Shown here: positions 13,476 through 41,544 of the stretch, piece after piece
How the letters are laid out: each line of letters starts with the position of its first letter
How positions within the stretch are numbered: the first letter of the stretch is position 1
UHGV virus genome: UHGV-1376407
Origin: a virus
Length of the DNA stretch: 47,558 bases
Direction: 5' to 3' (one strand)
The notes under the pieces: model-generated
What the model saw: only the letters and a program-made list of their open reading frames with translations
The model's database searches: none
Told to the model about the DNA's origin: nothing
Position numbers and translations under genes: made by a program

Positions 13476-13505
13476 TTGACAGGCGTAGCAAGACTGACGT
13501 AGATT
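13476..13505 (+). promoter_or_regulatory. box promoter (TTGACA -35, 18-bp spacer, TAGATT -10; contains TGACGTAGATTGA)
   Basis: TTGACA 13476-81, TAGATT 13500-05. Upstream of the + MTase cassette. Confidence 0.55.
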
Positions 13506-13535: not shown

Positions 13536-13670
13536 ATGAACGAGACTGATGCTGATTTGAGATTTTACACAGACCTTTACATTGACCAGGGTTACACCTA
13601 TGAGGAGGCCCGCGTAAAGGCGATTTTGTTGCTGGCTAAAATTGGCGTAGTGGTGGAGGATAAGAGATGA
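13536..13670 (+). CDS. small hypothetical protein (44 aa), translationally coupled to the MTase gene
   Basis: ATG with GAGGG RBS. Stop overlaps the MTase start as ATGA. Not in the ORF track (<60 aa). Confidence 0.35.
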   Translation: MNETDADLRFYTDLYIDQGYTYEEARVKAILLLAKIGVVVEDKR

Positions 13671-14353
13671 TTATATGGTCACTTTTTGACGGGTCTGGAA
13701 TCATGGTGAAGCCGTGGGCGGACGCGGGCCATAAGTGTTATTGCTTCAATTATGACTCAGCAAACCACGGAAGTTACGAAGAAATTAGAGTTTTGCATAA
13801 AAACATTGAGTACGTTAACTGCTGGATTGATTTATTTTTTGAGAATTATGCTGCAAGCATTGGGCTTGGTGCTCCAGATATTATTTTTGCTTTCCCTGAT
13901 TGCACTGCTATGGCAGGGTCTGGCGCAAAGCATGGTAACAAGTCGCTAGATACCTTGAATCTCGCAAAGATGATTCAGCGTATTGGCAGAGACTATAATG
14001 CCAGGTGGATGATTGAAAACCCTGTAGGAAAACTGTCAACACTTTTCAGAAAGCCAGACCATTATTTTGACCCGTATGAATATGGTGGTTATATGACTGG
14101 AGAGGAGGGCGCTTTTCATCCCCGCATGCCAGCGCGTGATGCTTACACCAAAAGAACATGCCTGTGGGTTGGCGGTGGATTTGTCATGCCAGACAAAAAA
14201 CCAGTTCCTCACATTGGTAAATTTTGGGGGTGGGCATATCTTGGTGGCAAATCTCAAAGGACGAAACAGCTTCGCTCATTGACTCCAAGAGGGTTCGCCA
14301 TAGCTGTGTACGAGGCAAACAAGCCATGGTGGACTCATCATGATTTGAGGTGA
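13667..14353 (+). CDS. DNA methyltransferase-like protein with C5-cytosine MTase motifs I, IV and VI (short, 228 aa)
   Basis: Motif I LFDGSG, motif IV FPDC...AG, motif VI MIENPVG. Own promoter and terminator. Confidence 0.5.
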   Translation: MIIWSLFDGSGIMVKPWADAGHKCYCFNYDSANHGSYEEIRVLHKNIEYVNCWIDLFFENYAASIGLGAPDIIFAFPDCTAMAGSGAKHGNKSLDTLNLAKMIQRIGRDYNARWMIENPVGKLSTLFRKPDHYFDPYEYGGYMTGEEGAFHPRMPARDAYTKRTCLWVGGGFVMPDKKPVPHIGKFWGWAYLGGKSQRTKQLRSLTPRGFAIAVYEANKPWWTHHDLR

Positions 14354-15449: not shown

Positions 15450-15494
15450 GTTTAGAATCCTCTGTGTTTAGCTAAACAATCGCATTATATCATG

Positions 15495-15523
15495 TTGACA
15501 GGTTTTGATTGGTGATGTAGATT
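15495..15523 (+). promoter_or_regulatory. box promoter (TTGACA -35, 17-bp spacer, TAGATT -10; TGATGTAGATTTTGA)
   Basis: Exact consensus spacing, upstream of the homing-endonuclease-like gene. Confidence 0.55.
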
Positions 15524-15609
15524 TTGAGTGTGCAGCTAGTACGGCCAGACGAAAAGCGATTGGTTATCGCCTGCTGCATCACTTCAAACCACCTTTAACC
15601 GAGGACTCA

Positions 15610-16491
15610 ATGATGCGCAAGCTAACTACCGAAGAGTTTATTGCCAAAGCTAAAGCGGTTCATGGCGATAAGTATGATTACTCAGTAGCCATATATGTAA
15701 GCGCTCACACCAAAATATCTTTAATATGCAAATCTCATGGTAAATTTCTCCAGACCCCAAACAGTCACCTAAGCGGATGTGGCTGCCCAGCGTGCGCCAA
15801 AAAGCAAAGGCCAATATCAAATCTAATGGGTGTTAATGAGTTCGTTATGGAATCAAGAAAAATACATGGTGATAGATATGATTATTCAGAAGTTAAATAT
15901 AAGAAATCAATAGATAAAGTAAAGATAAGGTGCATGCTACACGGACATTTTTATCAGTCACCAAACAACCACTTGGCAGGTCATGGATGCCCAGAGTGTT
16001 CAAGGAACAAAAAAAGAAACTCACTAGAGTTCATAAAAAAGGCGCATGAAGTTCACGGGGCCGACAAATACATTTACAGTCTTGTCGACTATAAAAACGC
16101 AAACACAAAAGTTTTGATAATTTGCAACAATCATGGGGTCTTTGAGCAGACACCAATCAAACATACCCTTGGTGGAGGATGTCCTGGTTGCGCAAAGTAT
16201 GGATTCGATGAGTCAAAGGTTGGCTTTGTCTACTTCCTGATTAGCGAGTTTGGGATAAAGGTTGGGATATCAAACAACCCATCCCAGCGGCTACAAAAAC
16301 TCAAATCAGCAACCCCGTTCGATTTTCATCTTATCGCAAAAGTAAAAACTACTGGCGACGAGGCCATGCGCAAGGAAAAATATTATCATCACAAATATGA
16401 ATCCGCCTCTCTTACTGGATTTGACGGCGCTACCGAGTGGTTGCGATTCTGTCCAGAATTGATGAATGAGATCATGAATGAGAAGAATTAA
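15610..16491 (+). CDS. free-standing homing-endonuclease-like protein: three tandem ~65-aa zinc-ribbon repeats plus C-terminal T5orf172/GIY-YIG-like domain
   Basis: Three repeats of the pattern EFI.KA..VHGDKYDYS...HG.F.Q.P..HL.G.GCP.C. C-terminal VGFVYFLISEFGIKVGISNNPSQRLQKL matches the T5orf172 signature. AT-rich island on the opposite strand of the structural genes. Start set at ATG 15610 (RBS AGGA). Confidence 0.55.
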   Translation: MMRKLTTEEFIAKAKAVHGDKYDYSVAIYVSAHTKISLICKSHGKFLQTPNSHLSGCGCPACAKKQRPISNLMGVNEFVMESRKIHGDRYDYSEVKYKKSIDKVKIRCMLHGHFYQSPNNHLAGHGCPECSRNKKRNSLEFIKKAHEVHGADKYIYSLVDYKNANTKVLIICNNHGVFEQTPIKHTLGGGCPGCAKYGFDESKVGFVYFLISEFGIKVGISNNPSQRLQKLKSATPFDFHLIAKVKTTGDEAMRKEKYYHHKYESASLTGFDGATEWLRFCPELMNEIMNEKN

Positions 16492-16865
16492 CCCCATACC
16501 ACTCTCAGAAGCAACTCATGAATTGGCCTTCCTTCCTCGCTCAGCATCGGCCTACCGAGAGGAGCCTGCATCTGAACATAGTTCAAACAGCTATCAAGCG
16601 GGGTTGATTTAACATACTCAATTATCTCATTAGCCTTTGCATCAACATCGGAAACATTGTATGCCCCGCGCTTTCCAATGACATAGACTGAAAAGTAATA
16701 ATCCGATCCTAAATTGTCACGAACCTGAGTACCTCCATTTGACTGAATGACAATGAATTGCTCATCCCCATTCCCTGTATCATGCCAAAATTGCATCTGC
16801 GTAGTCCAATCATTCAGCAACCCAGCATCAGTCAAATAATCATAAACCCTCTCAAGCATATTCAT
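16488..16865 (-). CDS. putative tail terminator/completion protein (head-tail connector module)
   Basis: Small coupled gene in a block of five between the head and major tail genes. Confidence 0.35.
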   Translation of the reverse strand: MNMLERVYDYLTDAGLLNDWTTQMQFWHDTGNGDEQFIVIQSNGGTQVRDNLGSDYYFSVYVIGKRGAYNVSDVDAKANEIIEYVKSTPLDSCLNYVQMQAPLGRPMLSEEGRPIHELLLRVVWG

Positions 16866-17275
16866 ATTTTCATCTCTTTTTTAATTACCTGATCGACAAG
16901 TTCGCGTGTGTTTTCGCCAGCCTTGAGAAGGAATTTAGGCTCGCCGCTCTTATCCCACACGTTACCCTTTCCTTTGAGTCGTCCTGTGCGCGGCGTGTTC
17001 GTACCCAGCAGCGTGCCAGGTGCATTATGGACATACAGGGCGTAATTGGCAGCATACCCAATCTTGCCGGTTATGCGAGTGCCATTAACCTCAACGGTGT
17101 CAAACTGGCTGTTTATCAGCGCCGATGTAGCTACTGGAGTCATAGACGCCGATTCAGTCCTGATGATGTAGGTAGCGGCTTTTATTGCTGACACCGCTTT
17201 CTCACCAGTAATCTCGCCGACTATCTGCTGAGTGCGCTTAATAGCCTGCTGGATACCTCTCATTTTGGCGGCCAT
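16862..17275 (-). CDS. putative tail component (HK97 gp10-like)
   Basis: Size and position in the connector block; coupled to neighbours. Confidence 0.35.
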   Translation of the reverse strand: MAAKMRGIQQAIKRTQQIVGEITGEKAVSAIKAATYIIRTESASMTPVATSALINSQFDTVEVNGTRITGKIGYAANYALYVHNAPGTLLGTNTPRTGRLKGKGNVWDKSGEPKFLLKAGENTRELVDQVIKKEMKI

Positions 17276-17278
17276 ACA

Positions 17279-17623
17279 TTACCCCGTTACCAGCGCAAAA
17301 TCAGGCAGGTCGTTGCGGTCCAGCGTATTGCCGTAATTCACGACGTTTCTAATCTGGTCAGCTCCGGCGGCCAGCGGGTCAGCACTGGTAATGGTGCCAA
17401 GCATGATGAAGTCGCCAACAGACGCATCCTGATATTCCGTCCAGAATGTGTTTTTCTGTGCGATCTCATTGCCAGCTGTGCCGGTGGTCAGGTTCTTATC
17501 GAAGCCATAATCACACATGATGGACTCTGGCGCGGCGAATGTTGGCTTGCCATACTTATCCTTGCCAGTAAGCCGCCAGATTGTGCATGGCTGCGTATAG
17601 CTCCATCTCGCTATTGCTGACAT
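17279..17623 (-). CDS. putative head closure / head-tail adaptor protein
   Basis: Position in the connector block. Confidence 0.35.
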   Translation of the reverse strand: MSAIARWSYTQPCTIWRLTGKDKYGKPTFAAPESIMCDYGFDKNLTTGTAGNEIAQKNTFWTEYQDASVGDFIMLGTITSADPLAAGADQIRNVVNYGNTLDRNDLPDFALVTG

Positions 17624-17741
17624 GGTGCGGCCTCAAGAATATAAACCCAGCGCGGAACAGGAAGGCGCAGCAATACCAGAATAACCAGCAGCGGCATGCA
17701 CCATTTACGGATTGCGATATTTACAGTTAATGTTGACGTTT

Positions 17742-18134
17742 TCATCTGCACTTACTCCCGGTCACAACCCGAAACCACGGCTTTGCTGCCCCATCAGGCT
17801 CTTCCACAAGGTCGCCTGTGCAGTCTGCCGTGTCGAGTAGTTTCATCTGATTGTAAAGGGCCATCCACGGCTTGCTGCCATAGCCAAATGACTGCGACGC
17901 ACCAGATGGCGCCCGGTGGCTGGTGATGTATCTCCCTGCGGTATTTGAGGCAATCAGGATAGATGCCCATAGCAGAATTGCATCCTGCCTGCATGTGTCT
18001 TCAGGGTAATTAAGCTCAAGACACTCTGTGATGCTCGCCACCAGGCACAGGATGCCCATTGCGTCTGCCGTGGTGATGGTTACGCCTCTTGACGCCATGG
18101 CGGCGACGAGTTCACTTGCTGTCGGTGCTGCCAT
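17742..18134 (-). CDS. putative head-tail connector protein (start moved to internal ATG with GGGAGAG RBS)
   Basis: ORF track gives 17742..18203. The internal Met at 18134 has a strong RBS and removes most of the overlap. Confidence 0.35.
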   Translation of the reverse strand: MAAPTASELVAAMASRGVTITTADAMGILCLVASITECLELNYPEDTCRQDAILLWASILIASNTAGRYITSHRAPSGASQSFGYGSKPWMALYNQMKLLDTADCTGDLVEEPDGAAKPWFRVVTGSKCR

Positions 18135-18399
18135 TCTTTTTGCTCTCCCGAATCTTCCACCACATCTCGAAAAGGTTTTTTGCCACCAGTGACAGCGCGC
18201 CAAGTATAGAGGCCACCGCTGCCCACTCGGTAATCGAATGGGGGATCATTGAGGCAATGTATGATTGTGCGACCGGCGTCTGCTCTGCCACCTTCAGGCC
18301 AAGTCCCGTGCCGATGGATGTATAACCGGCTTTGTCGATTACCTGGCCGACAGTGCCACTAATTATCTGGTTTGCGGCGTGCTGAAGCGCGTCTCTCAT
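18112..18399 (-). CDS. hypothetical protein with C-terminal transmembrane helix
   Basis: ORF with hydrophobic segment AAVASILGALSLVAKNLF followed by charged tail. Confidence 0.35.
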   Translation of the reverse strand: MRDALQHAANQIISGTVGQVIDKAGYTSIGTGLGLKVAEQTPVAQSYIASMIPHSITEWAAVASILGALSLVAKNLFEMWWKIRESKKNGSTDSK

Positions 18400-18560
18400 T
18401 AATTATTCTCCGAATGATGAACTTCCAGCATCTGTACACCTGAACCAGCGAAAACGCTATGACGATAACGCCGATTGCTATATCCAATTTCGCCGCCTTA
18501 CGTTTTTCAGGACGGAACAGCGCGGGGTGAGTGTTGTTGGTTTAATTTTATCATAAAGTG

Positions 18561-18589
18561 TTGACGTAGATTGAGGGTGTAGCTATAGT
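18561..18589 (+). promoter_or_regulatory. box promoter (TTGACG -35, 17-bp spacer, TATAGT -10), followed by a second TGACGTAGAAAC box
   Basis: TTGACGTAGATTGAGGGTGTAGCTATAGT. Heads the 8-gene + accessory operon. Confidence 0.6.
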
Positions 18590-18611
18590 GATGACGTAGA
18601 AACAACAATAA

Positions 18612-18938
18612 ATGTTAGAGGTGATGAAGATGAATGAGTTCAAAGGATACCCCGCCCCGTGGGACATGAGAATCAAAGATGGGATGGCAATCTTTGATTT
18701 TAACCATAAAGGTGAAGTTCCACACTACCGATTTGCTGAATGCGTTGTGTCACTAGTTACCGACGATGAGCCGCAAGATTATCTAATGGCAAACGCGAAT
18801 TTAATTTCTGCCGCTCCTGAGATGCTGGAAGCACTGCAAAATATGGTCGAATCATACCAATATGAGGCATCACCTGATAACCCTACGCTCCTGCAAGCGC
18901 GCGCCGCAATCACCAAAGCGCTCGGAGAATCCCAATGA
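18612..18938 (+). CDS. hypothetical protein, paralog of 53..367 (ANANLISAAPEMLEAL core)
   Basis: Shared N-terminus, core motif and leader sequence with the first ORF of the window. Confidence 0.6.
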   Translation: MLEVMKMNEFKGYPAPWDMRIKDGMAIFDFNHKGEVPHYRFAECVVSLVTDDEPQDYLMANANLISAAPEMLEALQNMVESYQYEASPDNPTLLQARAAITKALGESQ

Positions 18939-19051
18939 TCCGCCACGAAATCCGAAAAGAAGACCTGAAGGCGTGGGATAAGTTCAAAATCAAGCTGGCA
19001 TTAATCGTTATCGGTGTTGCCATTGCTAGTGTATTCGCCTTATCAAAGTGA
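18935..19051 (+). CDS. small membrane protein (38 aa, C-terminal TM helix), ATGA-coupled
   Basis: ATG overlaps the upstream stop. Hydrophobic LALIVIGVAIASVFAL. Not in the ORF track. Confidence 0.35.
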   Translation: MIRHEIRKEDLKAWDKFKIKLALIVIGVAIASVFALSK

Positions 19052-19085
19052 TTGCGAAGTGAAAAAATTCAACGCGGAGGTGAAG

Positions 19086-19730
19086 ATGCATGATTTTATT
19101 AGCCAGCAATCCGGCGAGGTGAAATACCGTGAACCATTTTTTGTGCCTGTTGACGAACTGGTTGTGAGTGAGCCGCATCCAGAAAAAGAGGTTGTGGAAT
19201 TTTTTGTTAGAGAAATGCAGTCCGGCATGAGAATGCCTCCTATTGAGGTTAAGCGACTGGATGATGGGAAGTTTGCCGTCGTCATAGGCAAGGCCAGAGC
19301 CATTGCTTCAATGATGGTTGAATCAAGAGCAGATGAGGAGAAACTTGTACGGTGCAGGATGTATGAGTACAAAAACCTTATGCCAATTTTCAACTCAATA
19401 CAGCGCAGCTCTGGTGATGTTAATGGTTTGTTTTTTAGAATTTGGGGATATAAATTTCTAAAAATGACGGGCATGACTGGCGAGGAGATATCAAGAAAAT
19501 GTAAGAGGAATATGGATGACCTCATCAAATGCATGATTGTAGATTCTATGCCGTGTCACATTAAAAAACTTATCTTGAACAGCACTCTGTCACCATCTCT
19601 GGCGGTGGTCGTTGTGAAAAAGTTTGGTGCGCATGAAGCACATAGGGCCATAACTAAAGCATCAAATGACCCTTCCTTATGGGAAGGAAAGAGAATTACC
19701 CCAAGAATGATAATGAATCATATTGATTAA
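19086..19730 (+). CDS. ParB/Srx N-terminal-domain protein (ParB-like nuclease/CTPase fold)
   Basis: ParB box PPIEVKRLDDGKFAVVIGKARAIA. Start placed at ATG 19086 with GGAGGTG RBS (track ORF starts at 19014). AT-rich. Confidence 0.5.
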   Translation: MHDFISQQSGEVKYREPFFVPVDELVVSEPHPEKEVVEFFVREMQSGMRMPPIEVKRLDDGKFAVVIGKARAIASMMVESRADEEKLVRCRMYEYKNLMPIFNSIQRSSGDVNGLFFRIWGYKFLKMTGMTGEEISRKCKRNMDDLIKCMIVDSMPCHIKKLILNSTLSPSLAVVVVKKFGAHEAHRAITKASNDPSLWEGKRITPRMIMNHID

Positions 19731-19750
19731 ACATAACTGGAATTCATAAG

Positions 19751-20566
19751 ATGACATCTCTCGGAAAAATTTACTCAGACAAAGAAACTCGCGGCGGAAT
19801 CGTGGTCAACAAAGGTTATCAGGTTCCTGTCGATCAGCTTTACCTTGAACCTGGATACAACATCCGCGAAGCCGATGAGCAGCACGTTGAATACTTCGCG
19901 CAGTGCTGGGAATCAGGCCAGCCAATCCCGGCGTTAACTGTTATTCCTGATGCCGACGGAAAGCGCATCAAGATTCTTGACGGCCAGCATCGTTATCTTG
20001 GCGCATTGCGTGCCATTGAGCGAGGAGTGCCAATTGCGCGAATTGAGTGCAAAGACTTCACCGGCGATGAGGCGGATAAAATCGCCTTCATGGTGTCTTC
20101 AAGTCAGGGCAGGCAACTCGACCCGCTTGAGCGTGCAAAGGCTTATGTGCGCCTCAAAGGGTTCGGATGGACGAATGAAGAAATCGCCAAAAAAGTAGGC
20201 CGCTCAGTTTCTGATGTGCAGATGCACCTGTCACTTGGTGATGTGCCTGATGCCATCAAGCAGCGAATCAACGCGGGCCAAATCAGCTATGCCAACGCCG
20301 TTGCAGTGGCGCGCGAGCATGGCGATGATGCCGTTAACGTTATTGATGCTGCCGTTGAGGAAGCGAAAGCGCAGGGCAAGGATAAGGTGACGGCGAAAAC
20401 GCTCAAGGCCAAAAAAGTTAAGCCGATTGACCGCCTGATTTGGCTGCTGAAAGGGGCAGACCATATGGTTGTCACTGAGGGTCATGTGGCACAGGAGACA
20501 GAAGAATTTTTGCGCCTTCCTTCTGCGGAGTTGAGTGAAGTGCTGGCGATTCTGGAGAAGCTATGA
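19751..20566 (+). CDS. ParB-like protein with DGQHR motif and ParB-type HTH (DndB/DGQHR-family-like)
   Basis: KILDGQHRYLGALRA replaces the GERRxRA box. HTH GWTNEEIAKKVGRSVSDVQMHLSL. Confidence 0.65.
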   Translation: MTSLGKIYSDKETRGGIVVNKGYQVPVDQLYLEPGYNIREADEQHVEYFAQCWESGQPIPALTVIPDADGKRIKILDGQHRYLGALRAIERGVPIARIECKDFTGDEADKIAFMVSSSQGRQLDPLERAKAYVRLKGFGWTNEEIAKKVGRSVSDVQMHLSLGDVPDAIKQRINAGQISYANAVAVAREHGDDAVNVIDAAVEEAKAQGKDKVTAKTLKAKKVKPIDRLIWLLKGADHMVVTEGHVAQETEEFLRLPSAELSEVLAILEKL

Positions 20567-20772
20567 TGAGTACATCACTGCTGTCTTTGCTAAGAAATGG
20601 TGAATATAGCATCAGAGAAATGGCAAAAATTTTAGGAATATCAAAACATCGTGTTTCGTGGTTCATTGCGGAACTTGAGCGCCGTAAATGGGTAGAGGTT
20701 ACAAGGTGCGCGATATGGCTTCACGATGGAACACGATCAAATAAACCAAATAAATACAGAGTTAAATTATGA
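20563..20772 (+). CDS. small winged-helix/HTH DNA-binding protein
   Basis: YSIREMAKILGISKHRVSWFIAELERRKWVEV. ATGATGA coupling to the upstream gene. Confidence 0.5.
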   Translation: MMSTSLLSLLRNGEYSIREMAKILGISKHRVSWFIAELERRKWVEVTRCAIWLHDGTRSNKPNKYRVKL

Positions 20773-20942
20773 CAGCAGAACAATTCATAGAGAAAAACCT
20801 GCGCGAAAAACTGCCAGGCATCGACAACGCGGCCATAGAGGCTGCAATTACCCACTACAGGCGCAACCAGACTGAAAAGAAGGGCAAGATTTTCGATGAA
20901 TGCATGAAGGTTGCAAAACAACACATGGTGAAGGTGAAGTGA
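20769..20942 (+). CDS. small hypothetical protein (57 aa), coupled on both sides (ATGA, TGATG)
   Basis: Fills the gap between the HTH gene and the clamp-like gene with overlapping start/stop codons. Not in the ORF track. Confidence 0.35.
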   Translation: MTAEQFIEKNLREKLPGIDNAAIEAAITHYRRNQTEKKGKIFDECMKVAKQHMVKVK

Positions 20943-21478
20943 TGAAATTAAAAGTTAGCAAGTTACTTCTTGAAGGCGCGCTGATGTTCCAGGCCAAACA
21001 TGATGTGCGTTACTACCTGAATGGCATTTGCTTTATGCCTGATGGTCGCGTTGCTGCTACTGACAGTCATCGCGCCATGATTGCCAGTAAGCACGAAAAC
21101 AAGATAAAAAGTAACGTCATCGTGTCGATAAGCAAGTCGCCAACTAAGCGCTATTCCTATGCGCTACTGGACACTGAAACAAATATTGTCACTTACCATG
21201 ACGAACATGAAATGATGGTTGGTGCGGGCATTTGTTCTGAAATTGATGGCAATTACCCTGATATTGATCGTGTCATTCCTAAGCAGACCGCACCAGCAGA
21301 GCAGATTGGCTTTAATGCCAAATATCTTGCAGATGTTGAGAAGCTGGCGAAACTGTTTAACCCGAAATTTGAGGCGGTTCGCTTTGAACTGAATGGCAAC
21401 ACCAGCGCCGCCGTCGCAAATATCAGCGCACCAACTGGCGAGACTGCCAAAGTTATTGTTATGCCAATGAGGATTTAG
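20942..21478 (+). CDS. truncated DNA polymerase III beta sliding-clamp (DnaN)-like protein: domain II plus C-terminal half of domain III, no domain I
   Basis: HDVRYYLNGICF...VAATDSHRAMI, YPDIDRVIPK, IGFNAKYLADV and C-terminal VIVMPMRI. These align with E. coli DnaN QDVRYYLNGMLF...VATDGHRLAV, FPDYRRVLPK, IGFNVSYVLDV and VVMPMRL. Start set at ATG 20942 (TGATG coupling). Confidence 0.65.
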   Translation: MKLKVSKLLLEGALMFQAKHDVRYYLNGICFMPDGRVAATDSHRAMIASKHENKIKSNVIVSISKSPTKRYSYALLDTETNIVTYHDEHEMMVGAGICSEIDGNYPDIDRVIPKQTAPAEQIGFNAKYLADVEKLAKLFNPKFEAVRFELNGNTSAAVANISAPTGETAKVIVMPMRI

Positions 21479-21771
21479 TGATGAAAAAGAGAGATGGTGA
21501 AATTAACATTCTGCACAATGATTCTTCTTGTGGGATGCTTATTATGAGAGGAGATTACACAGAAAGCCAAATACTTGATGCGGCAATTAATAGTGGAATC
21601 ATTTCTGATGATGAAAGAAAAGGATGGGAAAACCTTGGTGAGTATGGCAGATATTATCAATCATGGTTTAAAGCAGTTCCTGATGGAAGCGGGCAATTCT
21701 CAACATTTCATCATGCAGTTGATAAAAAACTAAGAGGCGCTTATTTTGCCTCTGTCATAGAGCGCTTTTAA
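21478..21771 (+). CDS. hypothetical protein (last gene of + accessory operon)
   Basis: GTG/ATG start overlapping the upstream stop. AT-rich. Followed by a terminator. Confidence 0.4.
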   Translation: MMKKRDGEINILHNDSSCGMLIMRGDYTESQILDAAINSGIISDDERKGWENLGEYGRYYQSWFKAVPDGSGQFSTFHHAVDKKLRGAYFASVIERF

Positions 21772-21798
21772 AAAAAGCCCCTTTCGGGGCTTTTCTTT
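21771..21798. terminator. bidirectional rho-independent terminator (GCCCC-TTTC-GGGGC, A-run upstream, T-run downstream)
   Basis: Between convergent genes ending at 21771 (+) and 21801 (-). Confidence 0.8.
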
Positions 21799-21800
21799 TA

Positions 21801-22631
21801 TCAAGAAAGATAGGCGTCGTCCTCAAACCACGAAACGTAAGCATTGATATTTTGTGCCGCAGTATCCAGTGACGTAATGCGCAACAGATAGGTAGTATTA
21901 GGTGCCATGATGACCTGCTCACCGAGTTTTGCCTGCGAATTACCCTGCCCCTGGTTTGATGCGTTCCCTTCACTATACGTCGCGGCCACCGTCAGCTGTC
22001 CAATGCTTGTCACAGTAGAGCCAGTCAGAAGTTGCGCTGTTGCAGTATGCGGCGCGATGTCATTTGGGTTATTAATCTCCGCAGCAGTGCCGCCAGTGGC
22101 TACGGCTTCACGGTAGATTGACGCCACAACACCTTTCCCGGTGTAGCCAATGATGCGCTGATTAAACACAACCTGTTTTGAGCCGGTAATAAAAATGCTG
22201 TCAAGGTTAGCCCCGCCAGCGACATCAGTCACGCGACGCGATGCGGTGAATAGCTTTCCCTGCTTATTGGCAAGCTCCGAGTAGGACTGCGCGACAACCT
22301 GGCTTGATGGCACTGAGGTGTCAGCTCGCCACACCAGGACTTTCAGGGATGCAACGCCAGCAGGAAGCTGTGACTTGATCACTTTCAGTCGCAGCGCAAT
22401 GCCATAATAATTATTATTGTTAACGTCAATCCAGAAGTCACCAGATGCAAACGGCGATACCATTACGGAAACAGAGCCGCTTGTTAATGGCTCATGGCCG
22501 CCGGAAGAGTTTAATGGCACAATCTGTACCTGCAATGCAGTCCAGTCTGCTGACATGGTTTCGCTAAGCAAAACCTCTCCGTCAGCTGGAGTTGTGTTTA
22601 TTTCGTACCTGACAGCCATGATAACCCCCAA
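21801..22631 (-). CDS. putative virion structural protein (beta-rich, Thr/Ser/Gly-rich; decoration/fiber-like)
   Basis: 276-aa ORF downstream of the capsid gene, flanked by terminators. Confidence 0.35.
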   Translation of the reverse strand: MGVIMAVRYEINTTPADGEVLLSETMSADWTALQVQIVPLNSSGGHEPLTSGSVSVMVSPFASGDFWIDVNNNNYYGIALRLKVIKSQLPAGVASLKVLVWRADTSVPSSQVVAQSYSELANKQGKLFTASRRVTDVAGGANLDSIFITGSKQVVFNQRIIGYTGKGVVASIYREAVATGGTAAEINNPNDIAPHTATAQLLTGSTVTSIGQLTVAATYSEGNASNQGQGNSQAKLGEQVIMAPNTTYLLRITSLDTAAQNINAYVSWFEDDAYLS

Positions 22632-22633
22632 TA

Positions 22634-22662
22634 AAAAACCCGCTTGTTTGCGGGTTTATTTT
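22634..22662 (-). terminator. rho-independent terminator hairpin (CCCGC-TTGTTT-GCGGG with A/T runs both sides)
   Basis: Hairpin between the 64-aa gene and the 276-aa gene. Confidence 0.6.
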
Positions 22663-22855
22663 ACTTGGTTTTCTTTGTCTTTGGCTGCGATTCTTGCGGA
22701 GTTGCAACTTCCAGAACTTTCTCACTAACTTGGCGAAGTTTTGACTCAATGTGTGGGCTTGATTCGTCAATGATATCACCAATAGCAAGCTCACGCAGGC
22801 GACCATCTTTATCCTTGACGAAGATTCCGCTGGCGATTACTTCATATTTAGCCAT
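22661..22855 (-). CDS. small hypothetical protein (64 aa)
   Basis: Strong RBS AGAGGT 5 nt before ATG. Flanked by two hairpin terminators. Confidence 0.4.
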   Translation of the reverse strand: MAKYEVIASGIFVKDKDGRLRELAIGDIIDESSPHIESKLRQVSEKVLEVATPQESQPKTKKTK

Positions 22856-22872
22856 GATAACCTCTGATAGTT

Positions 22873-22899
22873 AAAAGGGGCTTTCGCCCCTTTATTTTT
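22873..22899. terminator. bidirectional hairpin terminator immediately after the capsid gene (GGGGC-TTTC-GCCCC)
   Basis: GC stem with A-run/T-run. Classic post-capsid attenuator. Confidence 0.7.
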
Positions 22900-23986
22900 A
22901 CAGCGCGGTTTGCGTGCCGTAGCCGTTGAAAACTTTGCTTCGACCATTGAAATCCTTGCGGATTTGCAGGCCCATAGCAGCCCAGGTCAGGAAGTTAAAG
23001 TTAGCGTGCGGCGTGGTACGCGGCTCTGCATAGGTAGATACCGGCTGAGCGACGCGAGGGCGAATATACAGTGCATTCTTCACATAGCCAACGAAATGGT
23101 TCCCGGTCAGCTTGAAGTTGGTGCCGATAGACGCGATGCGGCCAACGTTGCCGGTTTTGCCGAATGCGAGGATATAATCCTCAATGGTGCCGCCTTTGAA
23201 GCCTGCCGCGTTGGAATACGGGCGGCTGAAGGAACGGCGCACAGACGGAGAAACCCACAGATTAACAGGCTCGAACACATTCTGCGCATCCAGAACCGCC
23301 TGGAAATCCTGGTTGAAGAACTCAACGATTTCATCAGGGGTTGCAGTTTGCAGGTCGATGTTCAGCGCGCCAGTACCAGAGGTACTCAGGTTGAGCTGCA
23401 CGGTGTTCGGGTGGTTGGTGATGCCGTAAGCAGTATAAACGCCATTCACGTTCAGGCTTGCATCGCCGACCAGCAGATAATCAGCCATGTCTGCACGCAG
23501 GTTGAAAGTGGTGCTTTCCTGGTCATCAATCAGCGGGTCGAAACCTTCAGACTGCATACCCAGCAGCTCGCGCCACTCGCGGCCATAACCGGTTTTGAAG
23601 ATCGGGATTACATCGCCGCTGTAGGAATAGCGGGTTTTATCCAGGTCTTCAGGCTCCTGCCCGGAGATGGTGCGCACAACCTTACCAGCATCGGAGGCCA
23701 TGCGGCTAATCGCCACAGTCTTGCCGATGTTGATGTTGGTCGCCAGCGTCATCAGGTCGGCCATCATGTCCATGCCGGATTCGTTGCGGAATACGCGGGT
23801 GGTCACGTCGTCCACTTCGCGCCAGTAATCTTTCGTTACCAGCGCAGTGGCGTTTACGCCGTACTCTTTCGCCAGAGCGTTTTCACCATTGATGAAAACC
23901 TTGCGGTCAACAGTCAGGTGGCGCCATTGCTCTTTAACCACCTGCGAGTTGGTGATTAAGCCTTTCGTAAAGATAATCTTTTCCAT
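22898..23986 (-). CDS. major capsid protein
   Basis: 362 aa, directly after the decoration-like and scaffold/protease genes. Followed by a terminator. Confidence 0.65.
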   Translation of the reverse strand: MEKIIFTKGLITNSQVVKEQWRHLTVDRKVFINGENALAKEYGVNATALVTKDYWREVDDVTTRVFRNESGMDMMADLMTLATNINIGKTVAISRMASDAGKVVRTISGQEPEDLDKTRYSYSGDVIPIFKTGYGREWRELLGMQSEGFDPLIDDQESTTFNLRADMADYLLVGDASLNVNGVYTAYGITNHPNTVQLNLSTSGTGALNIDLQTATPDEIVEFFNQDFQAVLDAQNVFEPVNLWVSPSVRRSFSRPYSNAAGFKGGTIEDYILAFGKTGNVGRIASIGTNFKLTGNHFVGYVKNALYIRPRVAQPVSTYAEPRTTPHANFNFLTWAAMGLQIRKDFNGRSKVFNGYGTQTAL

Positions 23987-30555: not shown

Positions 30556-30591
30556 TTGACGTAGATTGAATCGTAAGCGATGATGTAGATA
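30556..30591 (+). promoter_or_regulatory. box promoter TTGACGTAGATTGAATCGTAAGCGATGATGTAGATA (two boxes)
   Basis: TTGACG 30556-61. Second box TGATGTAGATA. Precedes RBS AGGAGAG and the 30613 gene. Confidence 0.5.
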
Positions 30592-41515: not shown

Positions 41516-41544
41516 ACTATACGATGGCGCTCAATCTACGTCAA
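41516..41544 (-). promoter_or_regulatory. box promoter on - strand (TTGACG -35, 17 bp, TATAGT -10; TTGACGTAGATTGAGCGCCATCGTATAGT)
   Basis: Same architecture as the promoter at 18561; drives the leftward operon. Confidence 0.6.

Follow-up and report, generated by a model that had tools for sequence, protein, structure and literature searches.

Several described systems resemble the locus analysed here, an eight-gene operon in the virus genome UHGV-1376407 (in what follows, the window is this whole stretch of 47,558 nucleotides). The nearest are the orthologous operons of Skatevirus and of Klebsiella phages (Skate gp41-44, seszw_16-19, Bas81_0046-0050 and ZC2 gp40-45), which occupy the same locus on the same strand and share with the window a promoter box, a terminator and a core composed of a ParB-type protein, a small protein and a truncated DnaN, or mini-clamp. 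They differ from the window operon, whose genes are numbered g1 to g8, in that the latter adds g3, g5 and g8. In more than 200 phage genomes the operon is already annotated, as ParB plus 'Pol III beta' or 'RusA', and what is new in the window is the specific cargo, namely a rare second ParB (g3), a winged helix-turn-helix (wHTH) protein (g5) and g8. The function of the block has not been described experimentally, as a preliminary description made from the sequence of the window alone had also stated.

The ParB-type protein of the core, g4, finds its best structural match in KorB of plasmid RK2, a sliding clamp that depends on cytidine triphosphate (CTP) and acts as a repressor (PDB 8qa8, 8qa9 and 1r71). 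The two share their helix-turn-helix (HTH) family, and neither requires ParA to regulate. They differ in that g4 carries GQHR for GERR and SSSQG for ENxQRE, that no KorA/TrbA-like partner was identified for g4, and that there is one candidate site, against twelve for KorB. More widely, the ParB-CTPase fold is able to bind CTP, ATP or GTP and is often fused in phages to N6/N4 methyltransferases (PMC12704722), and a phage ParB activates its cognate 5mYOX T-dioxygenase, a DNA-modifying enzyme (PMC13229309). Like g4, these are phage ParB folds without ParA; they are associated with DNA-modifying enzymes, whereas the window operon encodes none, and those of the 5mYOX type lack the HTH that g4 possesses.

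The mini-clamp g7 resembles the E. coli DnaN (PDB 1mmi) in the fold of domain II and in the C-terminal half of domain III, and 14 of its cleft residues are identical. It differs by the absence of domain I and of beta residues 251-311, by its length (178 versus 366 amino acids) and by a score that falls below the family cut-off, and it is unlikely to form a ring. Clamps encoded or used by phages are known from late transcription, in T4 (gp45 with gp33 and gp55) and in Mu (MuC with the host DnaN), and the g7 gene also lies beside late genes. Unlike g7, T4 gp45 and DnaN are complete rings, and we saw no sign that g7 touches RNA polymerase.

Phages commonly encode ParA-less ParBs and clamp fragments, hardly any of which have been characterised, and the lineage considered here includes phages of Klebsiella, Salmonella and E. 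coli that are under development for therapy and biocontrol. The biological question of interest is the role that a cleft-only clamp fragment and a ParA-less ParB play in a lytic phage.

Conservation and composition of the operon

The preliminary description had proposed that the block is a moron-like insertion and the best candidate in the window for a coherent accessory system, either host-takeover or anti-defence. We found instead that it is a conserved, probably early operon with three foreign cargo genes, and not a coherent eight-gene anti-defence insertion. The window is the genome of a siphophage of ~47.5 kb, whose relatives are the Klebsiella phages XY3, ZC2 and ZCKP8 along with pYD38-A and pIS4-A; Skatevirus (Skate, seszw, Sf11, Bas80 and Bas81) is more distantly related. 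A T1-like layout was rejected despite the similar size, since the structural module of T1 is contiguous and without such a block. In 32/32 clade loci, including those of Skatevirus with only ~80% protein identity, the block separates the head genes from the connector genes and is encoded on the other strand; XY3, ZC2, Bas81, Skate, seszw, KpV2811, KlebP_265 and 19 IMG/VR contigs all agree in its locus and strand. Present at the same locus and on the same strand in every relative examined, the block is not a recent insertion. The box that heads it recurs, moreover, before at least eight further transcription units, which is also at odds with a moron. Moron-like behaviour, that is rarity and a GC content of 0.37-0.42, is restricted to g3, g5 and g8.

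Gene presence was scored with tblastn (at least 50% identity and at least 70% coverage) in the 32 clade loci. The ParB gene g4 was found in 31 of them, with 97-99% identity in the Klebsiella-phage relatives and ~80% in Skatevirus. It is followed by g6 (29/32), g7 (27/32, which is an overestimate; 84-96% identity) and g2 (26/32; 68-95% identity, none in Skatevirus). The leader g1 passes the threshold in six loci, a g1-type gene of 36-57% identity being present in most Klebsiella-phage relatives, while g3 was detected in two loci, g5 in one (phage XY3) and g8 in none. No relative among the clade loci carries the same eight genes together, and no phage record covers at least 80% of the block at the DNA level. 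A contig with a 97%-identical g3 has different genes downstream and no mini-clamp. The genes of the block are thus individually variable among relatives, the very pattern that the preliminary description had named as speaking against its eight-gene unit.

The stable core comprises four to five genes, g2, g4, g6 and g7, with a variable g1 slot, and the ancestral operon consists of a variable leader (g1), a membrane peptide (g2), g4, g6 and the truncated clamp g7. The three other genes are AT-rich, horizontally acquired cargo, lodged in slots where relatives hold methylases, endonucleases and small genes; between parB and g6, relatives have C5 or Dam methylases, endonuclease VII, HNH, 'anti-restriction'/EaC or other small genes. 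The block is indeed AT-richer than its surroundings, as first noted, with a GC content of 0.451 versus 0.508 and 0.516 in the flanks, but this deficit comes from the cargo genes g3 (0.416), g5 (0.381) and g8 (0.371), whose GC content is the lowest, g4 being at 0.522. No separate promoter was detected for g3, g5 or g8. Such a distinction between core and exchangeable cargo is useful for phage engineering and genome reduction.

Mutants and natural isolates give an independent view of the core. In the CiPGr study, genome-reduced mutants were obtained from the Skatevirus seszw, a Salmonella phage (PMC9825161). The deposited genome of mutant 190S lacks the g6 homologue seszw_17, and smaller mutants such as 290S (35,993 bp) have lost both seszw_17 and the mini-clamp seszw_16; all the seszw mutants examined keep ParB (seszw_18) and seszw_19. 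Among natural isolates, VLCpiS13d retains a parB remnant of 24 amino acids (positions 4353-4380 of its locus, L035) and neither g6 nor g7, and the first gene of its block is a g3-like ParB paralog. As these phages are viable, the core of the operon plays an accessory part in plaque formation, and ParB seems more difficult to lose than the mini-clamp.

Transcription signals and the promoter box

The block is a real operon, and as operons go an ordinary one. Eight co-oriented + strand open reading frames (ORFs) span 18612-21771, between a promoter at 18561 and a terminator at 21773-21794, and form one transcription unit on the strand opposite to the head and connector genes. In these points, and broadly in the identity of the products (two ParB-type proteins, a wHTH protein and a truncated DnaN), the preliminary description was accurate. 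It had also deduced stoichiometric co-expression from start and stop codons that overlap at nearly every junction. The five overlaps quoted are present (ATGA at 18935, ATGATGA at 20563, ATGA at 20769, TGATG at 20942 and TAGTGATG at 21478), but g2/g3 and g3/g4 are separated by gaps of 34 and 20 nt. Furthermore, overlaps of 1 or 4 nt occur at 19 of the 51 same-strand junctions outside the block (by a crude gene call), so that they are no special property of it, and the deduction is not supported.

The promoter, TTGACG-17-TATAGT (18561..18589, + strand), is sigma-70-like with 10/12 matching positions and is the top sigma-70 match within 16000-23000. Its -35 element is embedded in a phage box, TTGACGTAGATTGA, and a second copy of the box core, TGACGTAGA (18592..18600, + strand), lies just 3′ of the -10 and may be an operator or a piece of the promoter architecture. 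At the other end, a bidirectional intrinsic terminator common to the convergent head genes (21773..21794, both strands) folds as AAAAGCCCC-TTTC-GGGGCTTTT, a G+C-rich hairpin of 9 bp, which is able to act both ways because it is flanked by an A-run and a T-run. At the equivalent position in phage Skate, terminators are annotated on both strands. No Rfam family (at gathering thresholds) and no tRNA (ARAGORN) was detected within or near the block, and the antisense or alternative-frame ORFs at 19043-19534, 20231-20485, 20472-20666 and 19950-20198 were rejected, as they are without family support.

The genome alternates - strand structural blocks with + strand blocks, and box TTGACGTAGATTGA heads nearly all of the latter plus one - strand block, that is about nine units, at least eight of them besides the ParB operon. 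The box serves at the same time as a -35 element, and in many cases a further copy follows 17-30 nt downstream. Its sites are at 13495, 18562/18592, 27903, 30557/30581, 36324/36341, 36683/36700 and 45177/45201 on the + strand and at 41535 on the - strand; the pairs at 30557/30581, 36324/36341, 36683/36700 and 45177/45201 are in tandem, as in the ParB operon. The box core has 22 matches in the genome for 6 expected, and none of the shuffles attained 22. One of the box-headed units contains a paralog of g1, then an exonuclease VIII-like protein, a Sak4-like protein and a single-stranded DNA-binding protein (SSB). The others include a DNA methyltransferase (13667-14350), a homing endonuclease, a PNK-like protein, a primase-like protein and a helicase. 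In 31 of the 37 fetched loci, Skatevirus included, the orthologous block is likewise headed by the box. Since it is common to recombination, methylase, primase-like and helicase units, the block belongs to a DNA-metabolism regulon and is not a foreign transcription unit. The box could be a shared early or middle promoter, or the operator of some regulator.

The truncated sliding clamp g7

The g7 gene (20942..21478, + strand) encodes a beta sliding clamp truncated to 178 amino acids and belongs to the core. It matches TIGR00663 with an E-value of 3.5e-12 and 46 bits, versus a DnaN cut-off of 137.65, and E. coli beta at 7e-12. On the latter, it covers residues 136-296 and 315-366 directly, or 135-250 and 312-366 by gapped alignment. 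It thus corresponds to domain II and the second half of domain III, without domain I and the first half of domain III. The AlphaFold2 (AF2) model (predicted local distance difference test, pLDDT, 95.8) has two long helices and ~1.5 clamp domains, and its top Foldseek matches are all beta clamps. The three-domain organisation with which DnaN builds its head-to-tail dimeric ring is lacking in g7.

What the protein has kept is the clamp-binding-motif cleft with its subsites I and II. Using the list of clamp-binding-pocket residues of PMC11139829, we found that 14 of 19 are identical in g7 (R152, L155, T172, H175, R176, P242, R246, V247, M362, N320, Y323, P363, M364 and R365); among the other five, G174S, L177A and V360I are conservative changes, and V344 and L366 are unmapped or unlisted. 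Most of the positions that are near-invariant in a 64-member alignment of the g7 family also fall in the cleft (R23, G42, H43, P106, Y128, M174, P175 and R177). Y25 (beta Y154) adjoins it, and D21 (beta D150) is near-invariant but is no listed cleft residue. The family comprises at least 146 clusters at 50% identity, with E-values up to 1e-10, and nearly all of its members measure 170-210 amino acids.

Relatives of g7 have been labelled RusA-like Holliday junction resolvases (phrog_3007; RefSeq NC_071151 and NC_054639). We rejected this label, for no RusA match was obtained in Pfam or NCBIfam; as sequence and model match only beta clamps, it looks like a propagated annotation error.

In other phages, mini-clamps are found in replication modules: Serratia phage Eta has a row of SSB, ParB, mini-clamp and helicase; in Hafnia phage yong1 the companions of the mini-clamp are CII and an O-like initiator, and in Vibrio phage PVP-XSN they are Dam and SSB. 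Mini-clamps are also encoded on the opposite strand inside the head modules of the unrelated siphophages EP23 (L029 5998-7356), Bcep781 (L030 5977-6558) and SE1 (L040 3471-3986), alone in the last two and accompanied in EP23 by an Nmad5 gene. In Dhillonvirus, where Nmad5 neighbours the mini-clamp, the Tmn defence is reported to sense it as its trigger.

The ParB-type proteins g4 and g3

In the core protein g4 (19751..20566, + strand; 271 amino acids), an N-terminal domain of the ParB/Srx type, which bears DGQHRYLGA, is followed by a ParB/KorB HTH and by an alpha/beta domain at the C-terminus. In Pfam, it is recognised by PF17762 (HTH_ParB; 8.5e-11, 42.3 bits versus a cut-off of 22.6) and PF08535 (KorB; 2.7e-6, 27.7 versus 22.3); the same search gave no score for PF02195. 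Further matches were obtained with phrog_1033 (6e-86), with TIGR00180 and, among PDB entries, with Spo0J (1.7e-11), KorB (8e-5), ParB and Noc. The AF2 model (pLDDT 84) has KorB as its top Foldseek match (8qa9, a KorB-KorA co-crystal), followed by ParB and Noc, with an E-value of 1e-9. N37, R39, D77, G78, H80 and R81 are invariant across 41 homologues, and the GxxRxxA nucleotide-binding motif of the ParB fold takes the form DGQHRYLGA, in a sequence that aligns with the N-terminal domains of Spo0J and ParB. A ParA-type ATPase was looked for without success in the block, among the larger + strand ORFs scanned and in Bas81, a relative that is fully annotated. Judging from sequence and predicted structure, g4 is therefore a ParA-less, KorB-like member of the ParB-CTPase fold.

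The window contains a second, degenerate ParB-type gene. The g3 gene (19086..19730, + strand; 214 amino acids) starts at ATG 19086, behind GGAGG, and not at GTG 19014; the three database homologues are likewise of 214 amino acids. Compared with the g4 family, its product has kept the N-terminal domain and the HTH, has lost the C-terminal domain and the SSSQG motif, and has IGKAR for DGQHR. The homology to ParB rests on PHROG (phrog_1033, 6e-14) and on hhalign against the g4 family (probability 99.2%, E-value 3e-19), as no meaningful match to solved structures was found by sequence or profile. Only three homologues exist among 5.8 billion proteins, and the best match in 50,697 phage records has 28% identity. 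We read g3, from its sequence, as a degenerate and recently acquired paralog.

A candidate site for a ParB/KorB-like protein was sought in the genome. No repeated palindrome family, as expected of a multi-copy parS, was detected. A single perfect palindrome of 14 bp, TGTTTAGCTAAACA (15465..15478), precedes the major tail gene (- strand), with a TGaTATAAT extended -10 on one side and the ribosome-binding site on the other, and is identical in 24 loci; sequences with up to three mismatches to it are not enriched. At the same place and with the same promoter type (TGnTATAAT), Skatevirus has a different but related palindrome, GTTAGCNGCTAAC. In the loci L004 and L027, the palindrome of this place is found at 23890-23902 and at 362-374. 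The operator of KorB is TTTAGCSGCTAAA, and the half-site TTTAG of the candidate is as in this operator. Lying over the major-tail promoter, the palindrome looks like an operator controlling tail-gene expression and would be a candidate ParB/KorB-like binding site.

Possible functions of the operon

The comparisons above show an operon of ParB and mini-clamp that is conserved in its lineage, that of lytic siphophages resembling Skatevirus; we think it somewhat probable that, in this operon, ParB acts as a clamp or regulator and the mini-clamp binds host proteins. On this reading, g4 would be a clamp or regulator like KorB, loaded on DNA and switched by a nucleotide, with no ParA partner. Its target would be the genome of the phage, where it might act at the palindrome over the major-tail promoter or might assist DNA-modifying enzymes. 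As domain I and half of domain III are gone, g7 is unable to close a beta-type ring via the canonical interface; with the cleft kept and the ring parts lost, it most likely binds host proteins with clamp-binding motifs. Its partners might be Pol III alpha or delta, Hda, repair polymerases or MutL, and it could serve as an adaptor or a decoy that biases the host replication machinery towards phage DNA. The phage encodes a primase, a primase-like protein, a helicase and an SSB, besides its recombination genes. Neither the ORFs scanned nor the annotation of Bas81 revealed a DNA polymerase, and the phage must therefore use the host Pol III. The function of the operon would be accessory and not essential.

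Several observations weigh against this reading. The g4 family carries in box III an invariant SSSQG(K/R)QLDP where CTP-hydrolysing ParBs have ENLQRE and lacks its E and N residues, which leaves CTPase switching unproven. The palindrome TGTTTAGCTAAACA persists in VLCpiS13d, which is without g4, and this weakens its link to g4. A regular-expression scan of all ORFs revealed no convincing clamp-binding motif in the early proteins of the phage; the matches are internal only and mostly in structural proteins or unassigned ORFs, and we regard the scan as uninformative. The frequency of g7 given above is inflated because loci L005-L023 were fetched with g7 as the query. Finally, the methylases, endonucleases and 'anti-restriction' genes found in the slot of relatives leave room for an anti-restriction role of part of the block.

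This last point brings us to other explanations. That the whole block is a dedicated anti-defence or host-takeover cassette, acting on DNA as a unit, seems unlikely. The C5/Dam methylases, endonuclease VII, HNH and 'anti-restriction'/EaC genes between ParB and g6 in relatives would fit it, as would a hypervariable g1, which behaves as an arms-race gene would, the dispensability of g6 and g7 on a laboratory host and the proximity of the mini-clamp to Nmad5, the trigger sensed by Tmn, in Dhillonvirus. Yet g4 is 97-99% and g7 84-96% identical across the Klebsiella-phage relatives, unlike arms-race genes, and the eight genes co-occur nowhere else. PADLOC, which holds defence-system models only, gave weak generic wHTH matches for g5 and otherwise nothing relevant to the block. 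The mini-clamp is found elsewhere in replication modules, those of temperate phages, and the promoter box is common with replication and recombination genes. There is no direct evidence for the anti-defence role first suggested. We consider it likewise unlikely that g4 is mainly an accessory factor for post-replicative DNA modification, which would load or activate a methyltransferase in the manner of the ParB that activates 5mYOX (PMC13229309). A methylase abuts the 3′ end of parB in KpV2811, KlebP_265, YX3973, Bas77, Bas79, C1 and others, and fusions of ParB folds to N6/N4 methyltransferases are frequent in phages (PMC12704722). The window also has a methyltransferase in another box-headed unit (13667-14350), which would suit such a helper; but neither this block nor those of XY3, ZC2, Skate and seszw contain a methylase, and all of them have kept ParB. 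Moreover, the HTH DNA-binding domain of g4 is complete, whereas the ParBs associated with 5mYOX have none.

Could g7 nevertheless form a ring, for instance as a higher-order oligomer, and act as a processivity or transcription clamp that tethers Pol III or couples replication to late transcription? In this clade as in EP23, Bcep781 and SE1, its gene is found within or beside modules of late structural genes and on the strand opposite to them, the cleft used by polymerases and MuC-type activators is conserved, and precedents exist in T4 gp45 and in Mu MuC with the host clamp (PMC12867686 and PMC7892883). A protein of only ~1.5 clamp domains with two long helices, devoid of domain I, which provides the canonical dimer interface, scoring 46 bits for a DnaN cut-off of 137.65 and dispensable in seszw makes this very unlikely. 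Least credible of all, to the point of being nearly negligible, is a partition system of the plasmid type, serving a carrier or pseudolysogenic state. The N-terminal domain and the HTH of g4 are those of a canonical ParB and would suit it, and a single conserved palindrome could act as a centromere; but the ParA-type ATPase is missing from the block, from the larger + strand ORFs scanned and from Bas81, no integrase or repressor is annotated in Bas81, and the relatives are described as lytic. Lacking ParA, classical ParABS partition was excluded.

The reading that we favour, a conserved ParB and mini-clamp operon whose clamp fragment binds host proteins, can be extended. In this speculative and rather doubtful form, the mini-DnaN family would be a soluble, 'cleft-only' derivative of the host clamp that captures clamp-binding-motif proteins for phages that depend on Pol III; here, it would work with a ParA-less, KorB-like ParB loading at the major-tail palindrome, so as to couple replication to the late switch. 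If true, a clamp fragment reduced to a protein-binding cleft would be a new viral route into the hub of the host replisome. The clamp cleft is also an antibiotic target.

Small genes of the operon and surrounding genes

The first gene of the operon, g1 (18612..18938, + strand; 108 amino acids), is a leader gene of phrog_1273. Its paralog at 53-364 (33% identity, E-value 1e-11), with which it has the motif ANANLISAAPE(M/L)LEAL in common, opens the recombination operon, as g1 opens the ParB operon. Unlike its neighbours, g1 is hypervariable, with 36-86% identity among relatives, and the orthologous slot of relatives gives a PF27050 match. It is followed by g2 (18935..19051, + strand), a peptide of 38 amino acids with one hydrophobic helix, LALIVIGVAIASVFAL.

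Among the cargo, g5 (20563..20772, + strand; 69 amino acids) is a MarR/ArsR-like wHTH protein (HTH_24, 1.5e-5; MarR_2, 5e-6). At the end of the operon, g8 (21481..21771, + strand; phrog_28696) encodes a protein of 96 amino acids. Its nearest match is in Erwinia phage Gungnir39 (62%), followed by Yersinia phages.

The core gene g6 (20769..20942, + strand; 57 amino acids; phrog_4439, 3.8e-21) is found directly upstream of g7 wherever g7 is present. KlebP_265 has (L026 5332-5850) a 'YppF-like' protein of 172 amino acids, whose N-terminus is 65% identical to g6; this similarity suggests a fusion of g6 that stands in place of the g6 and mini-clamp pair.

Around the operon, two further genes were noted. 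Between the tail and connector genes, a homing-endonuclease-like gene (15505-16491, + strand; GC content 0.411; phrog_681/phrog_559) occupies a position where several relatives have tRNA genes, the window being without any tRNA. Across the terminator, a gene for a protein of 276 amino acids (21801-22631, - strand; phrog_5335) is present in only 16 of the 32 clade loci, which makes the terminator-proximal zone a variable hot spot on both strands.

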